From the IMG/VR virus record IMGVR_UViG_3300008952_001422, positions 32,001-96,000 of that record: DNA of 64,000 bases; one strand, given 5' to 3'. This DNA is from a virus. Within the stretch, counting starts at the first letter, position 1. Each line of letters opens with the position of its first letter. The notes below the pieces were generated by a model. It was not told where the DNA came from, searched no databases, and saw only the letters and a program-made list of their open reading frames with translations. The position numbers and the translations under genes were made by a program. This document shows positions 16,722 to 54,384 of this stretch, piece after piece.

Positions 16722-16729
16722 GATAAATA
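16722..16729 (+). promoter_or_regulatory. late promoter variant GATAAATA
   Basis: Immediately after the terminator, upstream of the ExbB-like operon. Confidence 0.55.
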
Positions 16730-16771
16730 GTTCTAGATAATTACATAATACAGACAGTGGGAGAGTTAACC

Positions 16772-17212
16772 ATGACTAAAACGTTTCTACAATGGTGGTT
16801 GTTTTTTGTACTCCAAATAATCATTCTAGGCGCCTCATATGTGTATAAACTACATTTATACATACTCAACAACGACCAGACTTATATCTGTTTCATTTTG
16901 ATAGGTATTTGGTTACTTACAAGTATGCGAATCGGATATAAGATGTACAAACATATTCGAACATCTAATGAAAAATTCTGGTTTATTGCAGAAAGTTGTA
17001 TGGCGATTGGTATGATGGGTACAGTTCTTGGTTTCATTCTTATGCTTGGCAGTAGCAACTTAGGTTCTATTGACCCATCAGATATAGAAGGTATGAAAAC
17101 CGTAATAGGACATTTAGCAAGTGGTATGTCCACGGCTCTATTGACTACCCTCACTGGTCTAATAGTTTCAGTTTCTTTACGCACTCAATTAATGATTGAG
17201 GAAGGTGAGTAA
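16772..17212 (+). CDS. MotA/TolQ/ExbB proton-channel family protein
   Basis: IGMMGTVLGFI...GMSTALLTTLTGL signature. Confidence 0.8.
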   Translation: MTKTFLQWWLFFVLQIIILGASYVYKLHLYILNNDQTYICFILIGIWLLTSMRIGYKMYKHIRTSNEKFWFIAESCMAIGMMGTVLGFILMLGSSNLGSIDPSDIEGMKTVIGHLASGMSTALLTTLTGLIVSVSLRTQLMIEEGE

Positions 17213-30916: not shown

Positions 30917-33900
30917 ATGAAACTGACACAACTTATAGAAACCAAAGAACGTCTTTACGTTTGCGTTCATGCTAAAACTCCAAAGCATGAAGTTTACGCA
31001 AAATCATCTTATGATGCGGCAAAACAAGCGGCTGAGTATTGGGGTATGAAATCTACAGCAGGCATTGATGCACATTTGGCAGAAGACAATCAGCCTGAAC
31101 CACGTAAGATGCAAGTAACACAAGCAGACAAAGATAATAATACTGAAGCCTGGAAACGTTTTAGAGCAGGTGACCCAAGATATGAATGGAAAGATATGAT
31201 ACTTTCCAAAAAAGAAGGTGATGTATCAGAAGCAGTTGGCGAATTTGCACAACCAATTTATGATTTAATTGATGACTTGGGTGGTGATAATGATGCACAT
31301 GAAATCGTATTAAACGATATGGTTCGTTACTTAGGTGGTGATACTATTCAAGATTTTGTTAAAGACTTTAGAAGTAACCATGATATGAATCATCCAGGTG
31401 AAGATGGCGATTACGGTGAAGATGATAAAAACTTTGAATCAGTAAAAGAAGCAACACATGGTGAAGCCAAACCAATTTATGATTTAGTTGGTTCATTAGG
31501 TGCAGGTGATATTGAATTAGCACAGAATCCTGTATTTCAAGATTTAGTTCGTTTTTTAGATGCTGATACTATTAATAAGTTTGTAACAGACTTCCGTAGA
31601 AAGATGGCTAAAGATAAAGATTTCAAAGGTTCAGTTGATTTTGGTCAATATAAAGAATCATTTAATGATGAAGAATATAATGATGAAGAAAGGGCTGGAA
31701 TGGAATATACTGTATGGGTTGGTGGTACTGAAGTTAATGACAAGTGGCTAAATTACGAAGAAGCCAAAGAGTTATATGACTTATGGAGAGCCAAAGGTTA
31801 CGATGACGTTCAACTAGATGCTCGTTTAAAAGAAGGTTCATTTTGGGGCAGAGATGATATGGTTGCTCAAATGAAAAGAGATGAACTAGCGGCAGGAATG
31901 AGAAAGTACACAAAAGATGTTGACGGCGTCCATAGCGGTTCGACTACTTCTGACCCAGAAGAATGGAAAAGATTAGAAGCAGATGGTTACGAATGGGATA
32001 AAGATTATTATAAAGATATAGAAGAATTAGAAGCAAGATGGAAAAAGAAACACGTCAAAGGAGAATCACGTACAGATGAATGGGCATTTGTGGCTCCATT
32101 AGCCGGAGTTGCCGGAACCGCGGCAAGAGTAGTTGGAAGCGGTCTCGGAAGAGCGGCAATGCGAGGAGCGGTAGGTGGAATGGTTGGTAAAGCCGTAAAA
32201 AAGGCAGCCAGTCTAGGCAGTGATAATGCAACAAAAAGCGTTAGATATGGAACAACAAGCACTTTACCGACAAGTAGTAGCATTGAAAAATTTAATGACC
32301 TTAATGCATCTAAGAAACCAAAAAAGAATGCCAAAAAATTAAACGCAGTTAAAGAAAAACAAGAAAAGACAGATGATTTATTAAAAGGATTTGACCCTAA
32401 AACTGCAAGAGCATTAATGATGTTGAAAACAAAATATCCTCAAGCAGATAATGTTCTTTCGGCTCTATTAGCAGATGTTGAAAATAATGAAAAAGATAGT
32501 GATGTTGCCGATTTGACACAAGGTCATAATATTGAGAAATTAAAAAAAGCAGTTGATATCTTACAAAAAGAAATCAATCTTTTGAAAGTGGATAAAAAAA
32601 GAAATGCAGTTAAAGAAAAAGCAAAGCCAGACTTTTTAGACCTTGACAAAGATGGCAACAAGAAAGAACCAATGAAAAAAGCAGTTAAAGATAAGAAAAA
32701 AGTAAGTGAAGACTTAGATGCTGTTTCCAAAAAAATCATAAAAAAACTAAGACAGAAAGCAAAAGATGATTATGATAAAGGCCGCCCGATAGCAAAAAGA
32801 AAGTCTGATAAAGAAATCATAAAAAAACTGAGACAGGACGCAGATGATGATATCAAAGCCAGGGACAAACGTAATAGAAAAAGACATCCCGAATGGTTTG
32901 AAGCATATAATCCTGAAACAGGAAGAGACCCTAATAAGCCTACACCAGAATGGGACAATCTTATTGCAAAAGCAAAGAAAAAGCAAGGTATCAGTGACGA
33001 AGAAGAAGTATGGTTTAATTATGAAGACATTGGTGGAAACATAATTGTTAATCCTAAGTCAACTATAGAAGACCAGATTGGTGAACTGTTAAACAGATAT
33101 TATGACATTAGTCCAATGGAATTTGACCCTAGTAAAATAGAAATTACAACTCCAGACCAAACAAATCAAGATGCAAATTTTGCCAAAACTCAAAATGCAA
33201 GAAATACACCAGTTCAAGAGGATAAATATTCTGACCTGAATCCTACTAATAAGTTTGGTTACTTTGGTGGACCAGGATTCTATAGTAATGATGGCAGTAC
33301 TTATACTGAACCACATTATGATGATTTTGATATCAGACAACACAACAGAGATAATCCTGAAGATAAAATCAAACTTAATAATTGGGCTGATTTTAATCTA
33401 AAAATGAGTTATCATAAAAAGGATGGTAAAAGAGTTCAAGGATTTGGTGGAATGGGATATAATGTTTCATTTCACGGCAATCCAAAAGATGTAGAAGCCT
33501 TTGCTATGCAACATTTAGATGCAGAACGTTACTCAGGTGATAATATTCCTGAATCAGAATCTTTACCGCAACAGGTATCACTTGCAAGTTCGTTGATAGC
33601 ATCAAGACAAGCAAAAAGAAATGAAGTTAAAAAAGTTAGAGAAGATGAAGAAGCAGTAGCGGCTAGAGATGAATTTATGAAAGTTATGGATATGAAACCA
33701 AAAGGTGGTTTAAAAGATATTCCAAAAGCAATCGACACAATTAAGAAGATTGTAGCAGACAAACAAAATCAACAAGTAAAATTTGACGATGGCAAGATGA
33801 GAGTAGATTTATACACAGCATCAGCAGTATCAAAAGTATATGATGCAGTTAAGCCAGAAACACAAGAAAAAATTGACGATATGTTAAGAACTAAAGAAGG

Positions 33901-34780
33901 TATGCTTAAGATGTCAAACTTTGCATTTAGCAAACTTAGTGAAGGTATCAAAGCAGGCAAACGTATTGATGAGATTTTACCTTTAGCGGCTATTGGTGCA
34001 GTTGCTGGTGGGGTTGCTAGAGCAGTTGGTGGAAAACTTGCAAAAGCGGCTGTAAAACATCCAATTAAAACAGCGGCAGTTGTTAGTACTGTAAAAAATA
34101 AAGACAAGACAGTAAAACAGAAAGCAACTGACGTAGCACGAATAACATCAAGCAAATATGATTTAGATGAATTACAAGCACCTTATACTGGTCCAGATGC
34201 AGTAATAGATAAAAATGGTAAGGGGCATAAGCCTGGTAGTCCAAAAGCGAACATGATTATAAATATGAAAAAGAAGACACCAGTTGCTAAACCATTACAA
34301 AAAAAGACAGCAAACAAATCAGGTGTTAAACCAGCACAAAGTACAGTAAAACCAGCAGGAGTAGGTAGAGGTAATGCACCTGGTTCAAAAGCGACTCAAA
34401 TTCAACCTGGTGGTGGTAGTAAGGCAGGTATGGCTAATAAGGCTACTCCATCACAAATTGCACAAGCGAAAAAAGATGTAATGAAGAATAAAGTTAGAGC
34501 AGTTGGTAAGAAAGTTTACGATATGGGCAAATCTGCTATAGCAAAAAGTATGGACCGTACCGGAATGGGTAATCCTCTATCGGCATCTGAGTATTCTCCC
34601 GAAGATAAAGCGGTAGACATAATGAAAGGTGCTATGAAGAAAGTAGAAGAACTAAATACAAAACCTTCAGGTAAAATCACAGTTAAGAGAATCCCAGCGA
34701 AAGGACCGAAAGGACCGAAAGGTTATACGCCTGGTGACCATCATCCCCCTACTAAATTCAAGGCCTCAGTTAAATTTTAA
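30917..34780 (+). CDS. giant mosaic protein (putative internal head polyprotein)
   Basis: MKLTQLIE leader, a tandem duplicated module, DLDKDG EF-hand-like motif, Gly/Ala amphipathic segments, Lys-rich C-terminus. Confidence 0.7.
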   Translation: MKLTQLIETKERLYVCVHAKTPKHEVYAKSSYDAAKQAAEYWGMKSTAGIDAHLAEDNQPEPRKMQVTQADKDNNTEAWKRFRAGDPRYEWKDMILSKKEGDVSEAVGEFAQPIYDLIDDLGGDNDAHEIVLNDMVRYLGGDTIQDFVKDFRSNHDMNHPGEDGDYGEDDKNFESVKEATHGEAKPIYDLVGSLGAGDIELAQNPVFQDLVRFLDADTINKFVTDFRRKMAKDKDFKGSVDFGQYKESFNDEEYNDEERAGMEYTVWVGGTEVNDKWLNYEEAKELYDLWRAKGYDDVQLDARLKEGSFWGRDDMVAQMKRDELAAGMRKYTKDVDGVHSGSTTSDPEEWKRLEADGYEWDKDYYKDIEELEARWKKKHVKGESRTDEWAFVAPLAGVAGTAARVVGSGLGRAAMRGAVGGMVGKAVKKAASLGSDNATKSVRYGTTSTLPTSSSIEKFNDLNASKKPKKNAKKLNAVKEKQEKTDDLLKGFDPKTARALMMLKTKYPQADNVLSALLADVENNEKDSDVADLTQGHNIEKLKKAVDILQKEINLLKVDKKRNAVKEKAKPDFLDLDKDGNKKEPMKKAVKDKKKVSEDLDAVSKKIIKKLRQKAKDDYDKGRPIAKRKSDKEIIKKLRQDADDDIKARDKRNRKRHPEWFEAYNPETGRDPNKPTPEWDNLIAKAKKKQGISDEEEVWFNYEDIGGNIIVNPKSTIEDQIGELLNRYYDISPMEFDPSKIEITTPDQTNQDANFAKTQNARNTPVQEDKYSDLNPTNKFGYFGGPGFYSNDGSTYTEPHYDDFDIRQHNRDNPEDKIKLNNWADFNLKMSYHKKDGKRVQGFGGMGYNVSFHGNPKDVEAFAMQHLDAERYSGDNIPESESLPQQVSLASSLIASRQAKRNEVKKVREDEEAVAARDEFMKVMDMKPKGGLKDIPKAIDTIKKIVADKQNQQVKFDDGKMRVDLYTASAVSKVYDAVKPETQEKIDDMLRTKEGMLKMSNFAFSKLSEGIKAGKRIDEILPLAAIGAVAGGVARAVGGKLAKAAVKHPIKTAAVVSTVKNKDKTVKQKATDVARITSSKYDLDELQAPYTGPDAVIDKNGKGHKPGSPKANMIINMKKKTPVAKPLQKKTANKSGVKPAQSTVKPAGVGRGNAPGSKATQIQPGGGSKAGMANKATPSQIAQAKKDVMKNKVRAVGKKVYDMGKSAIAKSMDRTGMGNPLSASEYSPEDKAVDIMKGAMKKVEELNTKPSGKITVKRIPAKGPKGPKGYTPGDHHPPTKFKASVKF

Positions 34781-34873: not shown

Positions 34874-35134
34874 ATGTCAATTGACGCAATTAATGAAGAA
34901 GAAAAAGCAAAACTCATTCAATTAGTAAATGAAGGTTGTCTAGTTCTACAAGAAGTTGAAGACCTCAAAGGTGGATTACGTGATACAGTAAGAGCAATTG
35001 CTGAAGAAATCGATGTAAAACCAGCAGTTTTAAACAAGGCAATCTCGGTTGCACATAAGGCCAAACTATCTGAGATACGTGCTGACTTTGAAGATATGGA
35101 AACAATTCTGGAAACTGTAGGGCGTACTCTTTGA
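34874..35134 (+). CDS. small helical protein, T4 DsbA-like dsDNA-binding protein
   Basis: Helical 86 aa; ..LRDTVRAIAEEIDVKPAVLNKAI..AHK pattern; upstream of the polymerase. Confidence 0.5.
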   Translation: MSIDAINEEEKAKLIQLVNEGCLVLQEVEDLKGGLRDTVRAIAEEIDVKPAVLNKAISVAHKAKLSEIRADFEDMETILETVGRTL

Positions 35135-37938
35135 GTTATGTAGATGCATTCTACAACAAAGATAAGGACATTGTTCAAGTTGTAGAACGAATAAAAGGCA
35201 AAAGAGTTTATAATGATTATCCAGCGTGGCGCACTTTCTATGTGAAAGACCCACGCGGTGACCATATAAGTATTCATGGTGACAAAGTACGACAAATCAA
35301 ATGTAAACGTCTTAAAGACTTACACAAAGAACGAAAAATAAATACTGGTAAAACATTTTACGAAAGTGATATTAAACCAGAAGTTCGTTGTTTGAGTGAG
35401 AATTATAATGGAATTGATTCACCTACTCTAAATACTGCCTTTTTCGATATTGAAACAGACTTCGATGCAAGTCGAGGGTTTGCTGACCCTAGTGACCCAT
35501 TCATGCCAATCACGGCAATCACAGTTCATCTTCAATGGTTAGACTTACTTGTAACACTTGTTATCCCACCCAAGTCAATGAGAAGTGGTGAAGGTCTTAA
35601 AGAGGCAGAAAGAATTTGTGAGCAATTTGAGAATACTCAATTATATCTAAGTGAAGTAGATATGCTTAATGACTTTTTAGATGTCATTGAAGATGCTGAT
35701 GTGTTGGCTGGTTGGAACTCTGAAGGTTATGATATTCCATACATTGTGAATAGAATAACTGAAGTACTAAGTAAATCACATACACGCAAGTTGTGTCTAT
35801 GGGAATTAGAACCTCAGAAACGTAGAATAGTAAAATATGGTAAAGAACAAGAAACATTTGACTTGTTCGGAAGAATTCACTTAGACTACCTAGAATTATA
35901 TCGTAAGTACACATATCACGAAATGCACTCATACGCACTTGATACAATTGGTGAACACGAAGTAGGTGAACAAAAAGTTGCATATGACGGCACACTAGAC
36001 CAGTTATACAACAATGACTTCTATAAGTTTGTTGAATATAACAGACAAGACGTTGCACTACTTGATAAGATTGATAAGAAACTAAGATTTATCGAACTGG
36101 CAAACGAGATTGCACACGATAATACAGTAAACATCAAAACAACAATGGGTGCAGTTGCAGTTACAGAACAAGCAATCATCAACGAAGCACATAGACGTGG
36201 TATGGTTGTTCCAGATAGAAAGAAAAAAGTTTGGTCAGATGATGATGTAGAATTATCAGATGAAGAATTACACGAAGTAGAAATGCAAAAGGCCGCTGGT
36301 GCTTTTGTGGCAGTTCCCAAAGCAGGATTACAGAGATGGGTAGCAGGTATTGATATCAACTCTCTTTATCCATCAGTTATTCGTGCGATGAATATGTCAC
36401 CAGAAACAATTGCAGGACAACTAAGACCTGACTTGACTGAAAAGATGATTGGTGATAGAATATCAGAGGGTAGAAAAACAGGTGCTAAAACATTTGGTTC
36501 ATCTCAAGCATGGGATGAAACATTTAGTACAGAAGAATTCCGTTTAGTTAATGAGAGGGACAAAGCAAGTAATATTACATTAGTACTTGAAGATGCACCA
36601 TGGGAAGAAAACAAAACAACTCAAGCACTATCAGGTCAAGAGGCATATGATTTAATATACAATAGCGAATTGAACTGGACTCTTACTGCTAATGGTACTA
36701 TATTTAAACAAGATGTTCAAGGTATCATTCCTAGTTTGTTAGAACGTTGGTATGCTGAACGACAAGTAATGCAAGAGAACAAGAAACTTGCCATTAAAGA
36801 TGGTGATGCTGAAGAAATAGCATTTTGGGATAAACGACAACTTGTTAAGAAGATTAACTTAAACTCATTATATGGTGCGATTTTGAATCAAGGATGTCGT
36901 TTCTATGATAAACGTATTGGTCAGAGTACAACTCTAACAGGTCGTTGTATAACAAGACACATGGGTGCAAAGTGTAATGAAGTAATCGTTGGCGAATATG
37001 ATTATAAGGGTCCAGCAGTTATATATGGTGACACAGACTCTATCTATTATTCAATGTATCCTGTTTACAAACAAGAGATTGATGACGGTAGTATTGAATG
37101 GGATAAAGAAAAAGTATTAATGTTATATGATGAAGTTGCCAATCAAGTCAACGCAAGTTTTCCAGATTTTATGAAAACGTTCTTTAATGTTCCTAGAAAA
37201 GAAGGTGAGATTATTGTTGCTGGCCGTGAGAATTGTTCGATTACAGGTATTTTTATTAAAAAGAAACGATACGCATTGCTTATGTATGATGACGATGGTG
37301 TTCGCCGTGATGTAGATGGTTCACCTGGTAAAGTCAAAGTAATGGGAATTGACATAAAGAGAAGTGATACTCCACCATATATGCAAGATTTTCTAAGTGA
37401 AGTTCTACTGAAAGTGTTAACTGATGGCACACGTGAAGAAGTCATTGAGATGGTTAAAGAGTTTAAGAAAGAGTTTAGAACAAAACCAGGTTGGGAAAAA
37501 GGTTCTCAAACTCGTGTAAACAATCTAACTTCATACAAGAACAGAGTGAACGCCGCAAAGAAGGCAATGGCAAGAGATTTGAATAATGGTGGTGATAAAT
37601 CTAAAAGAGATAAAGTCCACTTACCTGGACATGTCGCCGCATCATTGAATTGGAATATGTTACGAGAACTTAATCAAGACCGATATGCAGTAGAAATTGT
37701 AGATGGTATGAAGACGATTGTTTGTAAACTAAAGCCAAACACGTTCAAGTTGAAAAGTGTTGCATATCCTGTAGATGCGACTAAAATACCAGAATGGTTT
37801 CAAAAACTTCCATTTGACCATGAGTTGATGGAACAAACTATTGTTGATAAGAAATTAGACAACCTAATTGGAGTATTAAATTGGGATATGAGTGATGCAA
37901 ATGCATCAGAAACTTTTGATAATCTTTTCGATTTGTAA
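35131..37938 (+). CDS. family B DNA polymerase
   Basis: Exo motifs FDIET, GWNSEGYD, YNRQD; polymerase motifs DINSLYPS, K...NSLYG, YGDTDS, KKRY; TTG start. Confidence 0.95.
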   Translation: MSYVDAFYNKDKDIVQVVERIKGKRVYNDYPAWRTFYVKDPRGDHISIHGDKVRQIKCKRLKDLHKERKINTGKTFYESDIKPEVRCLSENYNGIDSPTLNTAFFDIETDFDASRGFADPSDPFMPITAITVHLQWLDLLVTLVIPPKSMRSGEGLKEAERICEQFENTQLYLSEVDMLNDFLDVIEDADVLAGWNSEGYDIPYIVNRITEVLSKSHTRKLCLWELEPQKRRIVKYGKEQETFDLFGRIHLDYLELYRKYTYHEMHSYALDTIGEHEVGEQKVAYDGTLDQLYNNDFYKFVEYNRQDVALLDKIDKKLRFIELANEIAHDNTVNIKTTMGAVAVTEQAIINEAHRRGMVVPDRKKKVWSDDDVELSDEELHEVEMQKAAGAFVAVPKAGLQRWVAGIDINSLYPSVIRAMNMSPETIAGQLRPDLTEKMIGDRISEGRKTGAKTFGSSQAWDETFSTEEFRLVNERDKASNITLVLEDAPWEENKTTQALSGQEAYDLIYNSELNWTLTANGTIFKQDVQGIIPSLLERWYAERQVMQENKKLAIKDGDAEEIAFWDKRQLVKKINLNSLYGAILNQGCRFYDKRIGQSTTLTGRCITRHMGAKCNEVIVGEYDYKGPAVIYGDTDSIYYSMYPVYKQEIDDGSIEWDKEKVLMLYDEVANQVNASFPDFMKTFFNVPRKEGEIIVAGRENCSITGIFIKKKRYALLMYDDDGVRRDVDGSPGKVKVMGIDIKRSDTPPYMQDFLSEVLLKVLTDGTREEVIEMVKEFKKEFRTKPGWEKGSQTRVNNLTSYKNRVNAAKKAMARDLNNGGDKSKRDKVHLPGHVAASLNWNMLRELNQDRYAVEIVDGMKTIVCKLKPNTFKLKSVAYPVDATKIPEWFQKLPFDHELMEQTIVDKKLDNLIGVLNWDMSDANASETFDNLFDL

Positions 37939-38549
37939 TGACTAAGACTTACACAGATTTAGTAGGAAGACGAAGCAGTAATGCAATATCAGATGAATGC
38001 TATACTCCTTCTGACCAAGTTCTTCCATTATTAGAATATCTAAACAAAGACAATACTTACTATGAAGCAACTAGCGGAAAGTCTAATTTAATTGTAGACG
38101 GCTTCAATAAAAATGGATATAAGATAGTGCCAAGTAATGATAAAGATTTCTTTGACTGTGGTCCAGATGATGTATATGATGGAATAATAACTAATCCACC
38201 ATATAGTATTAAAGATAAGTTTATAGAACATTGTTATTCTCTTGGTAAACCATTTGCGTTACTATTACCAGTAACAAGTTTTCAAGGTGGAAAACGAGGT
38301 AAGATGTTTATTAAACATGGTATGTCTACACTTGTGTATAACAATCGGGTAGATTTCACAGGAACTGGTAATCCTACATTTGGAAATGCTTGGTTTATGT
38401 GGGGTATTATACCATCTAATACTATCTATTGGGTCGATAATCCAAAGAATGGTCAACTTCAATATACAACTGAAGATAAAAAGCCATGGGTACTACGAAA
38501 AAGAAAAGATAATACAGCAAAATCATTTGATAATCTATTCGATTTATAG
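37938..38549 (+). CDS. amino (N6-adenine/N4-cytosine) methyltransferase
   Basis: DECYTP, DFF and catalytic TNPPYS motifs. Confidence 0.75.
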   Translation: MTKTYTDLVGRRSSNAISDECYTPSDQVLPLLEYLNKDNTYYEATSGKSNLIVDGFNKNGYKIVPSNDKDFFDCGPDDVYDGIITNPPYSIKDKFIEHCYSLGKPFALLLPVTSFQGGKRGKMFIKHGMSTLVYNNRVDFTGTGNPTFGNAWFMWGIIPSNTIYWVDNPKNGQLQYTTEDKKPWVLRKRKDNTAKSFDNLFDL

Positions 38550-38550: not shown

Positions 38551-38580
38551 TTGACAAGTGGTTCTAAATTATGTTATAAT
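38551..38580 (+). promoter_or_regulatory. sigma70 promoter
   Basis: TTGACA-N18-TATAAT with extended TG. Confidence 0.75.
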
Positions 38581-39443: not shown

Positions 39444-39638
39444 ATGGGAAAAATCAACGCAGAGAAAATCAAAACACGCCTAATACACTTAAAAAAACAA
39501 CACAGAGACTTAGATGATGGTATTATAACTGCATTCAAGATGCACACAGATGACCAAGTTGTCTCTAAATTAAAACTTAAAAAGTTACATCTTAAAGAAG
39601 AAATTGTTCAATTAGAAAGAGACCTAGAAGAAATCTAG
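39444..39638 (+). CDS. DUF465/YdcH-like coiled-coil protein
   Basis: L...HRDLD..I......LK.KKL.LKEEI pattern. Confidence 0.7.
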   Translation: MGKINAEKIKTRLIHLKKQHRDLDDGIITAFKMHTDDQVVSKLKLKKLHLKEEIVQLERDLEEI

Positions 39639-40189
39639 TGAGCATACTCAAACCAACACCAAAAACAATCCAAAATTTGATAAGAGTCATTCCAGACCAT
39701 CCGAGGCCTGGCGTACTCTATCAGGATATGGCAAGTGTCTTTAATGCGGCTCGAGGTATACAAGATGTCATGTCATTGTTTAATGATTATATCTCAGAGA
39801 ATAATATAAAATTTAACAGAATCATTGGACTAGATGCACGTGGATTTCCAATGGCTGGATGTTTAAGTTCAGAAACTGGCATACCATTTTCAATGGCTAG
39901 AAAGAAAGGTAAACTACCAGGCGAAACAATATTTACTGAATATGAACTAGAATACGGAACTGACGAATTGCACTTACAAGTAGATGCAATAGAGAAAGGG
40001 GACCAAGTATTGATTGTAGATGATGTTATAGCAACAGGTGGAACACTGGAGGCAGCCATTAAACTAACTGATAGATTTGAAGCCGAGGTTGTAGGTATAT
40101 TAAGTATAATGGAACTTGAGTTTTTGGGTGGTGGTGAGAAATTGCGTGATGCAGGGCATGACGTGTACTCAATATTACAAGAACAGTAG
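39638..40189 (+). CDS. apt: adenine phosphoribosyltransferase
   Basis: IPDHP.PGV.YQD, GLDARGF, RKKGKLPG, YELEYG and the PRPP motif VLIVDDVIATGGT. Confidence 0.93.
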   Translation: MSILKPTPKTIQNLIRVIPDHPRPGVLYQDMASVFNAARGIQDVMSLFNDYISENNIKFNRIIGLDARGFPMAGCLSSETGIPFSMARKKGKLPGETIFTEYELEYGTDELHLQVDAIEKGDQVLIVDDVIATGGTLEAAIKLTDRFEAEVVGILSIMELEFLGGGEKLRDAGHDVYSILQEQ

Positions 40190-40199
40190 CATAAACCAC

Positions 40200-40228
40200 T
40201 TGACTTTTGTGTTAAAATTTTGTATAAT
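40200..40228 (+). promoter_or_regulatory. sigma70 promoter (possibly leaderless)
   Basis: TTGACT-N17-TATAAT; the metK ATG begins 7 nt after the -10 box. Confidence 0.7.
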
Positions 40229-40234
40229 AGGAGT

Positions 40235-41323
40235 ATGAATAACTATATTTTTACTAGTGAGAGTGTAAGTGACGGTCATCCTGACAAGGTTGCAGACCAA
40301 ATTAGTGATGCATTAGTTGATGCAGGACTTAAAAATGGTGATGAAAAGACACGGATAGCGGTCGAAACACTCGTAACTACAAATCACGTAACGTTAGCAG
40401 GTGAAGTAAAGAACTTTAACGTGAGCAAAGAAGATGTTGAGCAAATTGTTCGTAATAAAGTTAAAGATATCGGATATGAACAAGGAGGCTTTCATTGGGA
40501 TAAACTAAAGATTTATAATGAGATTCACACACAATCTGGTGATATCGCACTAGGAACCGATGATTTCGGCGCTGGAGACCAAGGATTAATGTTTGGTTAT
40601 GCGTGTAACGACAACGAAGCAATGATGCCAGCACCTATATATTACGCACACGAAATACTTAAAGACCTCAAAGAAAAACGCAAAGGTGGTTATGAATATA
40701 TGTTGCCAGATGCAAAATCACAAGTAAGTTTGCAATATGAAGGTGGTAAAGTAAAACGTGTTGACCAGATTGTAATATCACATCAACATACAAAAGGATT
40801 TGGACATAGTATTAAAATGCCTTGTAGAGATTCAGCAGAAAAAATACTAAAAGGTTTGATAGATGATGAAACTGTATGGTATATCAATCCTACGGGCAAG
40901 TTTGAGATTGGTGGACCAGATGGAGATGCCGGAGTAACAGGTAGAAAGATTATTGTTGATACATACGGCGGTTATGCACCTCATGGTGGCGGTGCATTCT
41001 CAGGAAAAGACCCTACGAAAGTAGATAGAAGTGCCTCTTATATGGCACGATGGTTAGCAAAGAATGTTGTAGCAGATAACATGGCAGATTGGTGTCAAAT
41101 TCAATTGAGTTATGCTATCGGTGTTAAAGAGCCAACTAGTATCTATGTAGATAGTGATGGACACAATCGTAGTATTGAAAAGTTTATTGCTGAGAATATT
41201 GATTTAACACCAAAAGGGATTATTGATAGATTTGATTTATTCAACTTTCATCAATATAGTAAGAATTGTGTATACGGACATTTTGGTGACAAAGATGTTC
41301 CATGGGAGAAAATAGGATGGTAA
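40235..41323 (+). CDS. metK: S-adenosylmethionine synthetase
   Basis: FTSESVSDGHPDK, GAGDQG, GGGAFSGKDPTKVDRS. Confidence 0.96.
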   Translation: MNNYIFTSESVSDGHPDKVADQISDALVDAGLKNGDEKTRIAVETLVTTNHVTLAGEVKNFNVSKEDVEQIVRNKVKDIGYEQGGFHWDKLKIYNEIHTQSGDIALGTDDFGAGDQGLMFGYACNDNEAMMPAPIYYAHEILKDLKEKRKGGYEYMLPDAKSQVSLQYEGGKVKRVDQIVISHQHTKGFGHSIKMPCRDSAEKILKGLIDDETVWYINPTGKFEIGGPDGDAGVTGRKIIVDTYGGYAPHGGGAFSGKDPTKVDRSASYMARWLAKNVVADNMADWCQIQLSYAIGVKEPTSIYVDSDGHNRSIEKFIAENIDLTPKGIIDRFDLFNFHQYSKNCVYGHFGDKDVPWEKIGW

Positions 41324-46833: not shown

Positions 46834-46878
46834 AAAAGAGGGATGTCTATTGACTTCCCTCTTTTTTTATGGTACAAT
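46834..46878 (+). promoter_or_regulatory. terminator hairpin with embedded sigma70 promoter
   Basis: aaaagaggga...tccctctttt stem; TTGACT (46850)-N17-TACAAT (46873). Confidence 0.7.
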
Positions 46879-46884
46879 GATACT

Positions 46885-48264
46885 ATGATATTTGATACCA
46901 TAAAGCAGATGGCTCGGGACCACGGGTCAAAGACGGCTCTTGTCTGCAAGGATAAGCAATATACCTATTCTGAACTTATAAAAAGTGTAGAAAAACTGTC
47001 TGCCATTTTATCAACTGCTATAAAACCTGGTGAAAAAGTTCTGTTTGCAAGTGAAAAAGAATATCACTATGTGAGAATGGTACTTGCTTGTGATATCTTA
47101 GGTATAACATTCATTCCAACTCATCCTAATCTACCAGAAGATTACTTATTTGATATTGTCGAAGCCTGTAAACCAGACCATGTTATAATGAATGAGAAAG
47201 ATGCATTAGAACTAAAACCCCACAATAAAGGTCTAGTGTATTCTAAAAACGAGAACTCTATCTATACGGTATTATTCACAAGTGGCACAAGTGGTACTCC
47301 ATCTGCGGTTACTCACTCCGCCGCCGCCTGTATGTTTGGATGTTTAAATAGTATTTCAATACACGATTTATCATCTGATGATGTAATATTATCACAACTT
47401 CCTCCATCAACGATTGCAGGACTATACTTATATGCACTCCCAGGATTACTTAAAGGTGCTACTGTAATTATTGAAAAGTTCGAACCAAGACGATATATAG
47501 AATTATGTAACAAATGGAAGCCTACTATCGGCACAATGGTACCAGCAATGATACTTGCTTTACAAAAAGTTCGTAAATGGAAAGATTATAGTATGTCACA
47601 TTATCGACAGTTGAGTATTGGCAGTACCGCAATTACTAATGAAGTAATTGACTTATTGTTTGATAAGGGAGTTCCACTTGTTAGACATCTTTATGGATGT
47701 ACAGAAACACACGTACCTGCACTTACATATCTTATTGAACCCGATACTAAACACAAATTGCAACTGTCAGTATCACAATTTTATGAGCATAAATTAGATA
47801 GATTTGGTGTATTGTGGTTGAAAGGACCAACAGTAACAAAACGATACTTGAATAGTGAAGCAACCGTTATTGATGCCGAAGGATATTGGTGTACTGGTGA
47901 TGTATTTGAGAGAGAACATAACGAGTTAGTATTTAAGACACGAGAGAAAGATTTGATTAACGTAAATAGTTTCAATGTGTCACCGGTAGCAGTAGAGAAC
48001 GCCATCCTTGCTTGTGATGGAGTAGATGAAGTATGTGTTACATATAGAGAACGAGGTCTTGGAGAGAATGAATTAGTAGCCGTCATACGAAGTACTGATA
48101 AAAGAATGAATAAATACTACATAACAGAACAAATAAAGACAAAGTTAATGCACTACGAATTGCCTAAAGATATCATTATTGTGACAGAAGATTTGCCACG
48201 AAATGCAATGGGTAAAATTAAAAGACACACAGTAAAGAAGACATTTTGTGAGAAGGAGGATTAA
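46885..48264 (+). CDS. ANL-superfamily adenylate-forming enzyme (acyl-CoA/acyl-ACP ligase)
   Basis: FTSGTSGTP, YGCTE, TGD, PRNAMGKI; start placed at MIFDTIKQ. Confidence 0.9.
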   Translation: MIFDTIKQMARDHGSKTALVCKDKQYTYSELIKSVEKLSAILSTAIKPGEKVLFASEKEYHYVRMVLACDILGITFIPTHPNLPEDYLFDIVEACKPDHVIMNEKDALELKPHNKGLVYSKNENSIYTVLFTSGTSGTPSAVTHSAAACMFGCLNSISIHDLSSDDVILSQLPPSTIAGLYLYALPGLLKGATVIIEKFEPRRYIELCNKWKPTIGTMVPAMILALQKVRKWKDYSMSHYRQLSIGSTAITNEVIDLLFDKGVPLVRHLYGCTETHVPALTYLIEPDTKHKLQLSVSQFYEHKLDRFGVLWLKGPTVTKRYLNSEATVIDAEGYWCTGDVFEREHNELVFKTREKDLINVNSFNVSPVAVENAILACDGVDEVCVTYRERGLGENELVAVIRSTDKRMNKYYITEQIKTKLMHYELPKDIIIVTEDLPRNAMGKIKRHTVKKTFCEKED

Positions 48265-50010
48265 ATGAAATCTAAAGTTAAAAGTATTGTCGTAGTTGGT
48301 GGCGGTGTAGGTGGCTGGTTCTCAGCGGCTTGGATGGCAGTGAAACATCCTAATATCAAAGTAACCCTTATTGAAAGTGATAAAGTTGGAATTATAGGAG
48401 TAGGCGAAAGTACGTTGCCTCAACTGGGTACAATGATGAAAGAGATTGGATTAGAAGAAAGAGATTGGATGACCCACACAAATTCTATTTACAAACTAGG
48501 TAATAAATTTGTTGGTTGGAACATCGAAGGCAAACGTGACCATGCAACTAATCATTTTTGGTGTTCACGATGGGACGAACAATATTATGGTTTCTCTTAT
48601 GCACTACCTGAAAAGAAAATTACATCAGGTCTATATCATCCATTAGAAAAGGAAGACCTATTTAGAAATTCTAAAGGGCAACCTGGCGTTGATGATAAAT
48701 GGAACGATTATTGGTTACAGTTATTACGTGACGGTCGTAAGAACCAGTGGGAAATGGCACAAGATATGCAAGAAGGAACATATCTTATGGATTATAATAA
48801 GGCGCCGTATGATTGGGATGATAATTTATTAGTTGGCACTTGGCAAGGTGTTACATATCATGTTGATGCAAATAGATTTCCAGAAATAATCAGAGAAAAG
48901 GTTGCAATTCCTCACGGTGTTAATCACATACATGGTCATATCAATGATATTAAGAAAGACGATGATGGTTATATTACCTCAGTTGTTACCGAAGAAGGTG
49001 AAGAGTTTGAGGCTGATTTATTCCTTGATTGTACTGGTTTCGCCCGAGTACTAACAAAAACAATGAATGTAGAATGGATACCGATGCCAGAAATAACAAC
49101 TACAAGTTTAGTTGTTGCACCAATAAAATACAAGGATGTAAAAAAAGAATTTCGTCCATACACTATGAGTAATGCAATGGATGAGGGATGGTTATTTGTT
49201 ATACCATTGTATAATCGAATGGGCTCTGGATACGTATATGATAGTAGCGAGATATCTAAAGAAGATGCAATGAAGAAATATAAAAAGTATTGGGAAGGTT
49301 ACGAATTTATCCAAGAACCACAACATATGTCCTGGGATGCAGGAAAGTATAAAACTCAATGGAATAAAAATCTTGTATCAATTGGCATGTGTGGTTCTAT
49401 GATTGAACCGATGGAAGCAAACATTCTTGGCATTGCTCAAGCAGGATTTCAATTATGTAGTAATTTAATTTCTCGTGCAGAGGAAAAAGACGAAGTTATT
49501 GGTAGAGGTTCACTCCACGCATACAACAGGAACATAGATTGGTTAGTTGAAACAATTAAACGATTTATTTTATTTCATTATACATTAACTGAAAGAGAAG
49601 ATACTCCATTCTGGAAGAAAATGAAACAAATGGGTATTGACGAAAAACATAAAGAAGCATGTTGGAGAGAATATAGGATACCTGCCAACAATGCTGAATC
49701 AGGAGTTCCAGATTTTATGTGGGCGATGATGGCGGTTGCTATGAATAAGTTCGATGATGATATTAAACTAAACACAAAACCACATCTAATGGAACAAGCA
49801 AATGAAAAATTCTCTTGGCTTCGAACATCAAGCAAACGAAATGGTGTGAATGCACCAAATGCCTATGAGTGGCATAAGAAGGTACTCTTTAGCAACAAGA
49901 CACATGATGAAGTCCTTCAGGAGAATCTTAAAAAATATTCAAAGATTGTTAAAACTAAGGGAAAGGTAAAGTCATCCTCCAGCGGAACAATTACCTCACC
50001 TGGAAATTAA
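48265..50010 (+). CDS. flavin-dependent halogenase (tryptophan halogenase family)
   Basis: GGGVGG FAD motif, GVGESTLP, K-L-G-N-K-F catalytic-Lys region, DCTGF, GWLFVIP (WxWxIP variant), IEPME. Confidence 0.85.
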   Translation: MKSKVKSIVVVGGGVGGWFSAAWMAVKHPNIKVTLIESDKVGIIGVGESTLPQLGTMMKEIGLEERDWMTHTNSIYKLGNKFVGWNIEGKRDHATNHFWCSRWDEQYYGFSYALPEKKITSGLYHPLEKEDLFRNSKGQPGVDDKWNDYWLQLLRDGRKNQWEMAQDMQEGTYLMDYNKAPYDWDDNLLVGTWQGVTYHVDANRFPEIIREKVAIPHGVNHIHGHINDIKKDDDGYITSVVTEEGEEFEADLFLDCTGFARVLTKTMNVEWIPMPEITTTSLVVAPIKYKDVKKEFRPYTMSNAMDEGWLFVIPLYNRMGSGYVYDSSEISKEDAMKKYKKYWEGYEFIQEPQHMSWDAGKYKTQWNKNLVSIGMCGSMIEPMEANILGIAQAGFQLCSNLISRAEEKDEVIGRGSLHAYNRNIDWLVETIKRFILFHYTLTEREDTPFWKKMKQMGIDEKHKEACWREYRIPANNAESGVPDFMWAMMAVAMNKFDDDIKLNTKPHLMEQANEKFSWLRTSSKRNGVNAPNAYEWHKKVLFSNKTHDEVLQENLKKYSKIVKTKGKVKSSSSGTITSPGN

Positions 50011-50627
50011 TGAACGTTTTAGAAACCTGGATAGGTGCTGACAATTTAGAATTCAAGTTAGTTGAATATACTCCTAGCATACTGGGTGATGTTCAGGCAT
50101 TTTGTGAAGCCTGTGCGGCAGAAGGTATTGAAAATAACTCCAGTTTACAAGAAATGAAGTTTGGTAAATGGGGTGACTTAGAACAATGGCACATGGTATA
50201 TCATGGTGATAAAATTATTAGCATAAGTGGGTCGCATTATTATCCACATTTTCATAAAGATTGTTATAGAATAATGTATCGAATGGCTACATTGAAAGCA
50301 TATCGTGGGATGGCAAGTGAGAAGATATCCCTTAGAAAAATGCAACACAACTTTTGCTTTAGAGCAATTATGCCAGCACAAGTTGATTGGTGTTTAACAA
50401 AAGGAGCAACTGAAATTATCGCAACTACTAATTCGCCAGATAATATCGATTATGGTGGGACGATGCATAAGGTTCATAATCACGGACGTAGACGCAGACC
50501 AAATACTAAATCTGATAATATGACATTAATTCAGAAAGATGCTGATGTTTACAATACAAAACAAGATATTTGGAGAGTAAATGTTAGAGATTTTGCAACA
50601 GGTAAAAAGATTAAATTTAAGAAATGA
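50010..50627 (+). CDS. putative GNAT-fold acyltransferase
   Basis: YHGDKIIS.SG strand followed by RMATLKAYRG (motif A-like). Confidence 0.5.
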   Translation: MNVLETWIGADNLEFKLVEYTPSILGDVQAFCEACAAEGIENNSSLQEMKFGKWGDLEQWHMVYHGDKIISISGSHYYPHFHKDCYRIMYRMATLKAYRGMASEKISLRKMQHNFCFRAIMPAQVDWCLTKGATEIIATTNSPDNIDYGGTMHKVHNHGRRRRPNTKSDNMTLIQKDADVYNTKQDIWRVNVRDFATGKKIKFKK

Positions 50628-51775
50628 CAGTATATATTAACGCAATCAGTGGATTAACTCCCTTTGGTAATTTAGACCAAACATGGAAAGGCATAACAGA
50701 TAATAAAGTATGTTATAGTGAACTAAGAAAGTTTCCATGGGACAAATATACTAGGTCTAAAGTTGCAGGTGAAGTGAAATTTAATGCCGAAGATTATTCT
50801 AGTATATCTGAAAGAGACCGTGAGAAGATGCCAGAGTATATGCAATGGGCATTAGCATCAGCACAGGAACTATTAGATGGTAAAGAGTTAAACAAAGAAA
50901 GAACTGGTGTAATGGTTTCATCAGCATTAAGTATGCACCTTGAGACTTTAAGGGCTAATGAAAAAGATGCAGGTAACACTTTCACTTTTACACCAAACAT
51001 GATATCTAATAATATTAACATTCAATATGGATTTACTGGTCCTAGTACTATGACTTCTAGTGCCTGTTCTACAGGAATGTATAGTGTTATTATTGGATGT
51101 ATGTTAATAGAAACTGGACAAGCAGATAATATAATTGCTGGTGCATTTGATGATTCCGTATCACCAGATTCCTATAAACAGTTCGGAAAACTTAGGGCAT
51201 TATCTACAAAATTCAATAATACTCCAGAAAAGGCATCTCGACCTTGGGACACAAAACGTGATGGATTGGTACTTAGTGAGGGTGGAGCAATGTTCTTATT
51301 ATCTAATGAGAAGACATCAGAGACATTGGCAGAGATATCTGGTTACTCCATGAACAATGATGCTTATCAAGTCGTGGCACCTCATCCTGAGGGGATTATG
51401 ATAGAGAAATGCATGAAAGATACGTTAAATGGACGTATTCCAGACTTAATTAATGCTCATGCCACATCTACTCCTATGGGCGATTATATTGAAATAGACG
51501 CACTTAATCGGCTTGGACTACAAGATGTATGGGTAACTGCAAATAAGTCGCAAATAGGGCATCTCATGGGGGCGGCCGGGGCTATGGAGTTGGCTTTAAG
51601 TGTACTATCATTGAAACATGGTGCAATAACTCCGTCATTAAATATAGATTACTTAGAAGATGGCTACAACATAAAGTATACTCCAACCACCAAGAACTAT
51701 ATGGTAGATTCAGTTCTATGTAATAGTTTCGGATTTGGTGGTGCAAATGCAAGTATTTTACTGTCTAAAACTTGA
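50624..51775 (+). CDS. fabF: beta-ketoacyl-ACP synthase (FabF-like KS)
   Basis: SSACSTG (Cys), INAHATST (His), KSQIGHLMGAAG (His), NSFGFGG. Confidence 0.9.
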   Translation: MTVYINAISGLTPFGNLDQTWKGITDNKVCYSELRKFPWDKYTRSKVAGEVKFNAEDYSSISERDREKMPEYMQWALASAQELLDGKELNKERTGVMVSSALSMHLETLRANEKDAGNTFTFTPNMISNNINIQYGFTGPSTMTSSACSTGMYSVIIGCMLIETGQADNIIAGAFDDSVSPDSYKQFGKLRALSTKFNNTPEKASRPWDTKRDGLVLSEGGAMFLLSNEKTSETLAEISGYSMNNDAYQVVAPHPEGIMIEKCMKDTLNGRIPDLINAHATSTPMGDYIEIDALNRLGLQDVWVTANKSQIGHLMGAAGAMELALSVLSLKHGAITPSLNIDYLEDGYNIKYTPTTKNYMVDSVLCNSFGFGGANASILLSKT

Positions 51776-51822: not shown

Positions 51823-52629
51823 ATGGATATGATAGATAAATCAAAAAAACACACTTATATAGACTTTGAGGACTCAAAAGTAGTCTTATACTTTAGTAAG
51901 TATAATTTTACTGGTTCTGAAAAAACACTCAAAGATATGCAGGACAAGGATTCTCCTCACGTTTTTACTAAAACTGAGGTATTAAGTGCATCGATAATTG
52001 CAGATAAATTCAATGATAAGTATGTGAAATCTTCTGGTGCATTTGATATAGTTGAGGGCGAGTTTATGAAGACTGCTTTCAGTAATAAAGATATTTTGAT
52101 AGGAATTCTGACCAATTATCGTCATTTGATTACAAATAAAACATATCAGGAAGCAAAAGAGATAATGGCATATCTTGAGGATAAGTTTGCATTTAAAATT
52201 CTTGCTGATAATTTAACTGATTTTGAACATGGAATTGCTAAATTTCTGGCTGATGATAATTCATTGAGTAGTCACACATTGGGAATTGCCGCATATATTC
52301 CTACTTATTATGCAACCCATACAAAAAGTGATGAACTTAAAGATAGAAGTACACAATCTGGTCACTTAGGTAAGATAGGTGAAAAAATTACTACTGAAAT
52401 TGAGATACTATCATCAAAATATCTAGCAGAAACTCAATTTGGTGGGTCAGGTTATATGGTTAATGCTATCACAAGTGATAATCATAGATTATCTTTTTTC
52501 ACTGCAAATGAAGATATAGCAAACAGTAAAAAGAATGTTAAGGTTTCTTGTAAGATAAAATCTAAAGGAACCGCTTGGAAAGACGATAGTGTCAACGAAA
52601 CCAGGGTAAATTATGTTAAATTTGCTTAA
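51823..52629 (+). CDS. hypothetical protein, possible C-terminal OB fold
   Basis: SGHLGKIGEK...KIKS......ET.VNYVK C-terminal pattern. Confidence 0.55.
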   Translation: MDMIDKSKKHTYIDFEDSKVVLYFSKYNFTGSEKTLKDMQDKDSPHVFTKTEVLSASIIADKFNDKYVKSSGAFDIVEGEFMKTAFSNKDILIGILTNYRHLITNKTYQEAKEIMAYLEDKFAFKILADNLTDFEHGIAKFLADDNSLSSHTLGIAAYIPTYYATHTKSDELKDRSTQSGHLGKIGEKITTEIEILSSKYLAETQFGGSGYMVNAITSDNHRLSFFTANEDIANSKKNVKVSCKIKSKGTAWKDDSVNETRVNYVKFA

Positions 52630-52632
52630 AAT

Positions 52633-52660
52633 TTGACAAAATGCGGTTTTATGCTATAAT
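52633..52660 (+). promoter_or_regulatory. strong early sigma70 promoter
   Basis: TTGACA-N16-TATAAT with extended TG. Confidence 0.8.
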
Positions 52661-52693
52661 AGTAGTATATTTAATGATAAAAGAGGTTAAAAA

Positions 52694-53056
52694 ATGAGTA
52701 CAGATTATATCTTAAACAATACAGAGGGTTTAGTCAGCGAATGTTGTGGCGAGATTATGTGGGAAGACGGAGACCGTTGTCCTGCTTGTTTTGATAACTG
52801 TCTGGGAATTACTCCTGCAGAGGCATTCGGTACTCCTAAAGAAATTATGCTAGAAAAGTTAAAAGAATTTGCAAGTCCTTCTTCTGAAACAAGTCTAGCA
52901 AAAGGTCTTCCTATGGAAATGCTTGATAAGATTAAAGCAATTTTTCCAGGTGAATTTTTATACAGATACAGAGGACCTTCAACTAAAACATTCACAAGGT
53001 CTCCGTTTAATACGGTTCTTGAACATGCAACTAGTTTTGCAATATATTATAAGTAA
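52694..53056 (+). CDS. hypothetical protein with Zn-ribbon-like N-terminus
   Basis: SECCG...RCPAC. Confidence 0.6.
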   Translation: MSTDYILNNTEGLVSECCGEIMWEDGDRCPACFDNCLGITPAEAFGTPKEIMLEKLKEFASPSSETSLAKGLPMEMLDKIKAIFPGEFLYRYRGPSTKTFTRSPFNTVLEHATSFAIYYK

Positions 53057-53064
53057 GGAAAAAT

Positions 53065-54384
53065 ATGACAACTGTTACGAATGAAAAAGAATTAGACAAA
53101 GCATTAGACGATGTTTTGTCTGCTAACGGTGTTGAGATAGATAATACTCTTCCTGCTCCAGTAGTATTCGATTATACTGATGAAGAAGTTAAAGAGATGA
53201 TTGTAAGTAGTCGAGTTAGACTTCTTATTAGACATCCATTTTTTGGTACACTTGCTACTAGACTTAAAATGGTCGAGGCAGAATGGTGTCCAACTGCCGC
53301 AACTGACGGTAGACATTTTTATTATAATTCAGATTTCTTTAGAACTTTAACTCCTGAAGAAATTGATTTTGTTGTTGGTCACGAAGTTATGCATTGTGTT
53401 TATGAACATTGTGGTGAGTTCGGTAGATTAATGGACAAAAAAGAAGAAGACCGAGATATGAAACTTTGGAATATTGCGGCTGACTATAAAGTTAACCAAG
53501 CATTAGTTGAGTCCGGTGTCGGTACTATGCCGAAACAAGCATTACACGATAGAAAATATTACAGAAGTTATACAGAAGAAATTTACGAACATCTTAAAGA
53601 ATCTGGTGAGGCTGAGGATAAACAAACATTAGACGTTCATATGTTTGGTGATGGTGATGAAAAAGGTAAAGAAGGTGAGGGTAATGACCCAACTGGAAGA
53701 AAAGCACCTATTAAAGTTTCACCTCAAGAAGCCCAAGCGATTAAAGACCAGATGAAACAAGCAGTATTACAAGCGGCTCAATCAACCGATGCAGGAACTC
53801 TTCCTGGCGATATCAAAAGAATTATAAGTGGTATGACTAATCCTAAAATGGATTGGAGAGAACTTCTTAATATCTCTATTCAGAGTTTAGTAAAAAGTGA
53901 TTTCACATTTATGAGACAATCTCGTAAATCAAAGTCAATGGGAATTTATCTTCCAGGTCAAAAGAATGAAGATAAGATTGATGTTGCAATTGGTCTTGAT
54001 GTTTCAGGTTCTATTTCATCTTCAATGATTGAAGAATTTCTTGGTGAAGTTCACGGAATTATGCAACAGTTTCAAGATTTTAAGATTAGAATTTGGACAT
54101 TTGATACACAAGTAAACAAAGAAGGTTATAAAGAATTTGACCCATATAATGCTGACGAACTTAAGAACTACGAGATTGTCGGCGGTGGTGGTACTGATTT
54201 TGAATGTAACTATAACTTTATGAAGGAAAACGATATTACTCCTGATAAGTTTATTATGTTTACAGATGGTATGCCTTGGGATTCCTGGGGTGATGAAAGT
54301 TATTGTGATAGTTTATTTGTTATTCACGGTACTGACCAAATTGTTCCACCTTTCGGTGAACACGCCTATTACAGCCAAGCATAA
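53065..54384 (+). CDS. metallopeptidase plus vWA domain protein (DUF2201-like), MoxR partner
   Basis: TAATDG, HEVMH (HExxH), MIDAS DVSGS, GGGGTDF, FTDG. Confidence 0.88.
   Translation: MTTVTNEKELDKALDDVLSANGVEIDNTLPAPVVFDYTDEEVKEMIVSSRVRLLIRHPFFGTLATRLKMVEAEWCPTAATDGRHFYYNSDFFRTLTPEEIDFVVGHEVMHCVYEHCGEFGRLMDKKEEDRDMKLWNIAADYKVNQALVESGVGTMPKQALHDRKYYRSYTEEIYEHLKESGEAEDKQTLDVHMFGDGDEKGKEGEGNDPTGRKAPIKVSPQEAQAIKDQMKQAVLQAAQSTDAGTLPGDIKRIISGMTNPKMDWRELLNISIQSLVKSDFTFMRQSRKSKSMGIYLPGQKNEDKIDVAIGLDVSGSISSSMIEEFLGEVHGIMQQFQDFKIRIWTFDTQVNKEGYKEFDPYNADELKNYEIVGGGGTDFECNYNFMKENDITPDKFIMFTDGMPWDSWGDESYCDSLFVIHGTDQIVPPFGEHAYYSQA

Follow-up and report, generated by a model that had tools for sequence, protein, structure and literature searches.

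The stretch of DNA analysed here (64,000 nucleotides (nt), positions 32,001 to 96,000 of IMG/VR record IMGVR_UViG_3300008952_001422; hereafter the window) is part of a 127,031-bp virus record (G000, 34% G+C) from an uncultured marine giant phage. Between the genes for a T4 gp43-type DNA polymerase and a predicted sliding clamp, it carries a small DNA methyltransferase (MTase) gene whose product ends in the same heptapeptide, FDNLFDL, as the polymerase. We consider it likely that this enzyme is an accessory, mobile MTase of the N6-adenine type, consisting of the catalytic core only, that has become a client of the sliding clamp which the phage itself encodes. Because the MTase bears the same C-terminal peptide that the polymerase uses to dock, it is probably carried on the replication clamp and methylates DNA during its synthesis, by analogy with DNMT1 on PCNA. 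That the shared tail is more than a scar of recombination is supported by its being in frame, by purifying selection and by co-variation.

The first-pass annotation, made from the sequence alone, had noticed the shared tail and had described its two DNA copies as differing at two synonymous positions; reading both open reading frames (ORFs) confirmed this, and the coordinates match (Table 1). The differences between the 21-nt copies are CTT versus CTA and TTG versus TTA, both at the third position of Leu codons. With up to 3 mismatches allowed, the 21-mer has exactly two matches in the window, compared with 0.01 expected and with at least two matches in 0 of 100 shuffles. The strict tail ends only 2 of the 620 ORFs of at least 40 amino acids (aa) in the 127,031-bp record, the polymerase and the MTase, and in the latter it forms residues 197-203 of 203 with the stop codon directly after it. 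The MTase start codon shares bases with the polymerase stop codon (TAATG), and this overlap suggests that translation of the MTase is coupled to that of the polymerase. The polymerase itself is readily assigned by its Pfam domains (PF00136, E = 4e-33; PF03104, E = 6.3e-20) and its PHROG family (phrog_262, E = 6.2e-189), and among solved structures it is closest to DNA polymerase chains of 903 aa (1clq, 1ig9 and others). The promoter of the clamp gene, which begins 2 nt 3′ of the MTase stop codon, matches the consensus at 12 of 12 positions and has the TG of an extended −10 element.

Table 1. Features of the polymerase-MTase-clamp locus, in window coordinates.
Feature	Position	Strand	Basis
Family-B DNA polymerase, T4 gp43 type, 935 aa, ending ETFDNLFDL	35131..37938	+	Pfam, PHROG
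Repeat copy 1: final 7 polymerase codons (FDNLFDL), TTTGATAATCTTTTCGATTTG; then TAA overlapping the MTase ATG	37915..37935	+	
NPPY DNA methyltransferase, minimal, 203 aa, ending KSFDNLFDL	37938..38549	+	
MTase linker, residues 171-196 (NGQLQYTTEDKKPWVLRKRKDNTAKS), hydrophilic, basic	38448..38525	+	Predicted disordered
Repeat copy 2: final 7 MTase codons (FDNLFDL), TTTGATAATCTATTCGATTTA; proposed clamp-docking peptide	38526..38546	+	
Sigma-70-type promoter for the clamp gene: TTGACA, 18-nt spacer, TG-TATAAT	38551..38580	+	
Sliding clamp (PCNA/gp45 fold), 251 aa	38611..39366	+	Predicted structure

The gene downstream of the MTase had been called a putative sliding clamp, and structure prediction agrees with that call, giving a PCNA/gp45 fold despite the lack of any Pfam or PDB sequence match. 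Identification of the clamp required the fold because searches at the level of sequence failed: the protein matches 0 Pfam families, a phmmer search of the PDB returned chance-level matches alone, a profile of 129 homologues had 0 hits in the PDB, and Pfam searches of those 129 homologues returned PCNA_N and DNA_pol3_beta in one homologue each (E ∼0.03) and nothing consistent. Its PHROG family, phrog_12062, is annotated as 'unknown function', and 584 homologues are present in the representative library. The predicted monomer (predicted local distance difference test score (pLDDT) 96.7; predicted template-modelling (TM) score 0.92) has two similar beta-alpha-beta domains and an interdomain connector, the architecture of PCNA and gp45. 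A Foldseek comparison with the PDB gave at least 500 matches at E ≤ 0.001 with PCNA on top (3wgw_B, E = 5.5e-12, TM-score 0.66). An exhaustive structural search aligned the model with archaeal PCNA (1rwz_A; Z-score 18.6, root-mean-square deviation (rmsd) 3.1, 222 residues aligned) and with T4 gp45 (6drt_A; Z-score 16.2, rmsd 3.4, 210 aligned), and nearly all of the 42 chains with a Z-score of at least 8 were clamps. A clamp loader is encoded in the same record (G000 16512-17438; phrog_168, 'clamp loader of DNA polymerase', E = 5.2e-74).

The prediction of an NPPY methyltransferase also held when the protein was modelled. The MTase belongs to phrog_799 ('DNA methyltransferase', E = 1.7e-30); it matched no Pfam family at E ≤ 0.01 and no sequence relative in the PDB, and in NCBIfam it found just hsdM and hemK at E ∼0.08, far below the cut-offs. 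Folded with 86 homologues, approximately residues 20-170 (nt 37995-38447) form a Rossmann catalytic core with pLDDT >90. The fold search gave 34 PDB matches at E ≤ 0.001, with TM-scores of ∼0.5 when normalised to the query, and the top folds were type I HsdM (3ufb, E = 1.1e-5), 3lkd, M.TaqI/M.BseCI, 2np6/1aqj and 7qw5. The NPPY motif is present as TNPPYS (residues 85-90), and across the 86 homologues P87 and P88 are invariant and N86 and Y89 are each at least 90% conserved. From the model, the protein is best described as the core of a gamma-class N6-adenine DNA methyltransferase with predicted adenine-N6 activity. No target-recognition domain is present in the predicted structure, where only a linker predicted to be disordered lies past approximately residue 170 (residues 171-203 have pLDDT 44-53, versus >90 in the core), and no specificity subunit adjoins the MTase, its neighbors being the polymerase and the clamp. 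Among relatives the linker is hypervariable in both length and sequence.

Clamp-docking tails are textbook features of polymerases and of the T4 late-transcription factors. The first-pass annotation had proposed that FDNLFDL is such a clamp-binding tail, and the alignment with T4 tails, the position of the peptide at the end of a disordered linker and the predicted docking pose all favor that proposal. In the T4 record, gp43 ends in ASLDFLFG and gp55 in PSLDFLYEAND; the window's T/S-F-D-N-L-F aligns with the S-L-D-F-L-F of T4, and both TFDNLFDL on the polymerase and SFDNLFDL on the MTase fit the consensus [S/T]-hydrophobic-acidic-x-hydrophobic-aromatic. FDNLFDL is probably this clade's version of the T4-type docking motif, [S/T]-hydrophobic-acidic-x-hydrophobic-F. 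Passages of PMC9690074 describe binding of gp45 by the C-terminal motif of gp33 and gp55, and passages of PMC3201878 describe C-terminal clamp motifs on T4-like polymerases. We modelled the clamp (with its alignment) together with MTase residues 164-203 in three runs and compared the result with 3 controls. The docking score was 0.66 (0.69, 0.65 and 0.66 in the individual runs) versus 0.01 for the best control, at least 85% of contacts were common to the runs, and the pLDDT of the partner was at least 57; the mark used for docking is reached by 116 of 157 solved complexes and by 2 of 215 mismatched pairs. Contacts involved clamp residues 38-42, 127-134 (the interdomain connector), 227-229 and 244-250 and MTase residues 189-203. 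The model supports placement of the tail in the interdomain-connector pocket of the neighboring clamp.

Further loci were collected by searching with MTase queries, three against viral contigs and one against metagenomes, and all loci pooled comprised 35 different combinations of a polymerase tail with an MTase tail. According to the first-pass annotation, a second copy that was out of frame or decayed in relatives would mean that the MTase tail is only an insertion scar. For the most part the copy is intact: in the 28 combinations with a window-type polymerase, 22 MTases have an in-frame F-x-x-L/F-F tail. Of the other 6 combinations, 5 lack the tail through a clean deletion and 1 has a broken MTase (L273); the tails of the closest relatives are weakened. 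The retained tails are not copies of the polymerase tail beside them. The heptapeptide is identical to that of the resident polymerase in 2 of the 24 tail-bearing combinations and, among the window-type ones, in the window alone; 20 of the 22 window-clade tails differ from the resident polymerase's at one or more of the four anchor positions or of the residues that these enclose, and those that differ retain a hydrophobic residue at the anchor positions. Examples of such divergent pairs are a polymerase ending ETFEDLFSF with an MTase ending KSFDNLFDL, and a polymerase ending EQFENLFEF with an MTase ending SQFDILFE.

Codon comparisons of the tail point to purifying selection. Between the window and L228, the codons for KSFDNLFDL show 7 synonymous and 0 non-synonymous differences. 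For 66 pairs of 12 lineages (a set without L276), the ratio of non-synonymous to synonymous differences (pN/pS) was 0.154 for the tail and 0.161 for the core, and it was 0.377 for the linker (21 same-length pairs).

The form of the tail also follows the class of the resident polymerase. All 22 tail-bearing MTases beside window-type polymerases have the F-x-x-L/F-F form, both of those beside T4-like polymerases (L264 and L216) have an L-x-x-F-F/M form, and a cross-class pairing of polymerase and MTase dialects occurs in 0 of the 24 tail-bearing combinations. At L264, the T4-like polymerase is 30% identical to that of the window and ends in ERQSTLDDFF; the MTase directly behind it is 77% identical to the window's, ends in STSTLDDFF, and is bordered by a repeat of ∼28 nt that includes the TAATGA junction and has two synonymous differences. 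At L216, the T4-like polymerase ends in TLEDFFA and the MTase, 2 kb away with no flanking repeat, ends in DLLEFME. Whole records (G001-G005) added little on co-variation: PolB was found in 2 of the 5, and in one of these it is truncated by the end of the contig; in the other, G003, the polymerase ends in SNLEDFFG and the MTase in MTLENVKKYFNN, with no clear motif.

We also compared MTase homologues for the tail, as the first-pass annotation had proposed. The result was divided, with a tail in 68 of the 198 distinct homologues with an identifiable core end and none in the other 130. In the 68, an extension of 13-39 residues ends in the tail motif, and all extensions longer than 18 residues do so, bar one (KNDLLDL). 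A quick tree built from 165 MTase cores implies at least 9 changes in the state of the tail. On it the STLDDFF group falls inside the clade of the window (98% support), surrounded by FDNLFDL and tail-less forms, and L-x-x-F-F/M tails occur in a clade of 23 cores on MTases that do not adjoin a polymerase (L216, L210 and L045). Two distant homologues from Prochlorococcus phages, P-TIM68 (...KAKLLL) and P-SSM2 (...EAVLPL), have no motif.

A search anchored on the clamp gave 36 viral contigs, 2 of which have an MTase ending in PLNNLFDL. The first-pass annotation had called for a check of relatives that lack the MTase, and 20 contigs in which the clamp follows the polymerase provided it. In these MTase-less contigs the 3′ end of the polymerase gene reads TTTGATAATCTATTCGATTTA-TAG-GTTGACA..., which matches the MTase end and promoter of the window except that one contig differs at base 1 of the 21-mer and that scattered mismatches occur in the promoter region; the clamp promoter is thus kept behind the polymerase stop codon. 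The window's own polymerase copy differs from these ends in having CTT, TTG and TAA-TG. From this comparison we conclude that the MTase gene is bordered by direct repeats, and, judged by sequence, a genome without the MTase has precisely the form that recombination between these repeats would produce or start from. The suggestion that the MTase acquired its tail by a duplication when it inserted is in line with this arrangement, because repeats of the polymerase 3′ end flank the MTase both here and, independently, in L264.

Where relatives have a tail-less MTase, the tail is cleanly deleted with no frameshift. In some relatives the MTase frame terminates within the −35 box of the clamp promoter, and the ends TFDIDV and SIDIGIEN were rejected as decayed tails since they are this box (TTGACA) read in frame. 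The broken MTase of L273 (L273:2430-2963) lies between polymerase and clamp, and its match ends at query residue 146 and is followed by unrelated residues; it is a natural pseudogene of the cassette. Several relatives (L150-L161; for example L161:5576-9062) have 2.5-3.5 kb of extra genes between a tail-bearing MTase and the clamp, and because of these genes we regard the interval between polymerase and clamp as a hot spot for cassette insertion.

A number of observations weigh against the view that the MTase is a clamp client. The 130 homologues without a tail include 85 with fewer than 8 residues past the core, and 109 of the 165 cores on the tree are likewise without one. In the clamp-anchored set, 20 of 36 contigs go from polymerase to clamp with no MTase, and in 14 of 36 the MTase stops after a short basic stretch that lacks the motif. 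The closest MTases, in genomes whose polymerases are 91-98% identical to the window's, have weakened tails, namely KNDLFDL (in which the first aromatic residue is lost), KNDLLDL (one contig) and LNNLFDL (two contigs). The two DNA copies in the window are nearly identical, and for the window taken by itself a recent duplication or gene conversion would account for this without selection. The pN/pS values come from non-independent pairs whose synonymous sites are close to saturation, and there are few independent events: about 3 of the L-x-x-F-F type and at least 2 of the F-x-x-L-F type. The docking pass may stem from the numerous solved PCNA-peptide complexes that the model has learned. In a relative, G006 (342 kb, 92% complete, 1395 ORFs), the strict tail was found solely on the polymerase and the MTase, as in the window's record; across these two records the MTase would thus be the one additional client found. 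Because no cultured phage has a close MTase homologue (the best is 51% identical), published experiments could not be used as a check, and a nucleotide search of phages gave solely weak polymerase matches to jumbo phages. Finally, binding to the clamp and replication-coupled methylation are steps that we infer. As the tail is lost or weakened in some relatives and missing from 130 of the 198 homologues, we regard it as an accessory of the MTase.

One explanation for several of these observations is that the tail is a recombination scar: insertion of the cassette would have duplicated the last 21-28 nt of the polymerase gene, the MTase frame would run into the copy, and the inert peptide would persist until removed by drift or deletion. 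We consider this unlikely. The direct repeats that flank the MTase in the window (21 nt, 2 differences) and in L264 (∼28 nt, 2 differences) are in agreement with a scar, as are the MTase-less relatives, whose polymerase end, TAG and promoter are exactly what recombination between repeats leaves; however, the tail is in frame in 22 of the 28 clade combinations even though the adjacent polymerase tail has diverged, and a clade of 23 cores has L-x-x-F-F/M tails on MTases that do not adjoin a polymerase. The deleted or weakened tails of close relatives and the absence of a tail from most homologues also fit a scar, but absent tails are cleanly missing with no frameshift, and the linker ahead of the tail is 13-39 residues long, yet the motif stands at its end. 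An inert peptide is further at odds with the 7 synonymous and no non-synonymous differences between the window and L228 and with a tail pN/pS equal to that of the core.

Some known degrons are hydrophobic tags at the C-terminus. The tail might be functional with another partner, as a degron for the phage's Lon-like protease or a handle for another replisome protein, or might bind the clamp chiefly to compete with and regulate the polymerase and not to direct methylation. A large ATP-dependent protease is indeed encoded in the record (window 3642-5873; phrog_4871, E = 6.6e-250), but this explanation is quite improbable given that the motif aligns with the clamp tails of T4 gp43 and gp55, that the same position on gp43-family polymerases is described as a clamp tail in passages of PMC3201878, that the docking model places the peptide in the canonical pocket with controls at or below 0.01, and that in unrelated phages the dialect goes with whichever polymerase and clamp system is resident.

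If the MTase is a clamp client, the clamp loader encoded elsewhere in the genome would load the clamp, which is presumed to be trimeric as are PCNA and gp45, and the polymerase tail would fill the pocket under the interdomain connector of one subunit. The MTase tail could then take a free pocket, or a clamp left on the lagging strand. Held in this way on newly made duplex, the MTase would methylate it immediately, presumably shielding it from host restriction ahead of exposure, and the clamp would also provide DNA affinity to an enzyme that has no target-recognition domain. The bordering repeats would allow the MTase to be gained or lost by recombination with the polymerase tail left intact, and after insertion they would give an incoming MTase a tail matched to the resident clamp. 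In this scheme we infer physical binding, the use of the trimer as a tool belt, replication-coupled methylation and its benefit to the phage.

We tentatively propose a broader, plug-and-play version, which may well prove too strong, in which the MTase core moves between unrelated marine phages, lands 3′ of the resident polymerase gene and acquires a copy of its last 7-9 codons, so that one direct repeat docks the newcomer, keeps the polymerase tail and permits clean loss; this would have happened at least three times, in different dialects. If true, it would be the first replication-coupled DNA methylation outside eukaryotes and would provide a general route by which accessory enzymes are recruited to clamps. 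A search of full-text literature listed no paper on a clamp-docked DNA methyltransferase from phages or bacteria. Should the tail act in the proposed way, phages would have independently invented replication-coupled methylation, and this would explain how a very large genome is protected from restriction in real time by an enzyme with no recognition domain. The closely related genomes offer a natural series (tail present, weakened or deleted, gene absent, two dialects) that makes the idea directly testable. The repeat-bordered cassette shows local duplication spreading a short linear motif between genes, and a C-terminus identical to that of the resident polymerase provides a simple genomic signature for clamp clients.

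Other candidate clients came from the same genomes. A 454-aa protein ending in QYKDLFDA was dropped because it is a radical S-adenosylmethionine (SAM) enzyme. In G006, a 520-aa ORF directly 3′ of the clamp (L282:16315-17874, minus strand; G006 52315-53874) ends in ...GVADLFG; it matches no Pfam family, its tail loosely resembles the LDFLFG of T4, and it could be a further clamp client. Directly 5′ of the polymerase, an 86-aa gene (34874-35134) shows weak similarity to DsbA, a regulator of late transcription in T4 (phrog_639, E = 3.4e-6; PF11126, E = 3.2e-4, below the cut-off), which hints at T4-style clamp-linked late transcription; no tail-bearing sigma-like or co-activator protein was found.

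The remaining genes of interest surround the locus. The interval directly 3′ of the clamp (39444-41323) encodes a DUF465 protein and two ORFs identified by eye, one resembling adenine phosphoribosyltransferase, with no PHROG hit at E ≤ 1e-5, and the other resembling a full-length SAM synthetase, with a single hit to phrog_1569 ('unknown function', E = 8.3e-115). If the latter reading holds, the phage makes its own SAM beside a SAM-using MTase, in a genome rich in radical-SAM genes. About a dozen paralogous radical-SAM genes form a long run from window 60871-63553 on to G000 92868-107679 (minus strand), interleaved with a thymidylate synthase and a QueC-like gene and with a NifU-like Fe-S scaffold and a carbamoyltransferase nearby; the run is a biosynthetic or modification block, unusual for a phage. 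A cassette of ligase, tryptophan-halogenase-type and ketosynthase-like genes lies at 46843-51772 (48265-50007 matches phrog_2928, E = 7.6e-90), and 5′ of the replication genes, 30917-34780 encodes a 1287-aa low-complexity protein rich in Lys, Ala and Asp that has no PHROG match.

Three known systems resemble the one proposed here. DNMT1 is likewise a DNA methyltransferase with a clamp-binding motif, but it is a large C5-cytosine enzyme of cells whose PCNA motif is not known to be C-terminal, whereas the enzyme described here would be an N6-adenine-type core of 166 aa with a C-terminal tail, from a bacterial virus. Since the best folds for the MTase are N6-adenine enzymes, DNMT1 is a functional analogue only, with no homology. 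PMC9690074 and PMC1934996 describe the PCNA-binding motif of DNMT1 and state that it raises action on newly replicated DNA. Type I HsdM, M.TaqI and M.BseCI share with the phage MTase the Rossmann methyltransferase fold and the NPPY catalytic motif; unlike them, the phage MTase has no target-recognition domain and no specificity subunit nearby.

The closest parallel for the tail is T4/RB69, where gp43, gp33 and gp55 have in common a short hydrophobic-acidic peptide at the extreme C-terminus, as do the polymerase and MTase here, and where the peptide of another protein of the same system, T4 ligase, has been solved on gp45 (PDB 6drt). As in T4, the partner would be a PCNA-fold clamp encoded nearby, with a predicted pose under the interdomain connector. 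In contrast, the proposed client in this phage is a DNA methyltransferase, a kind of enzyme that the relevant passages of PMC9690074 do not name as a T4 client, and the Dam methyltransferase of T4 ends in ...DEVYIFN, without a docking motif. The phage's clamp, moreover, lies outside every Pfam clamp family by sequence, and the dialect of the tail is F-D-N-L-F-D-L. Lastly, the DNA that encodes the tail in this phage is at the same time the direct-repeat border of a cassette that is gained and lost.

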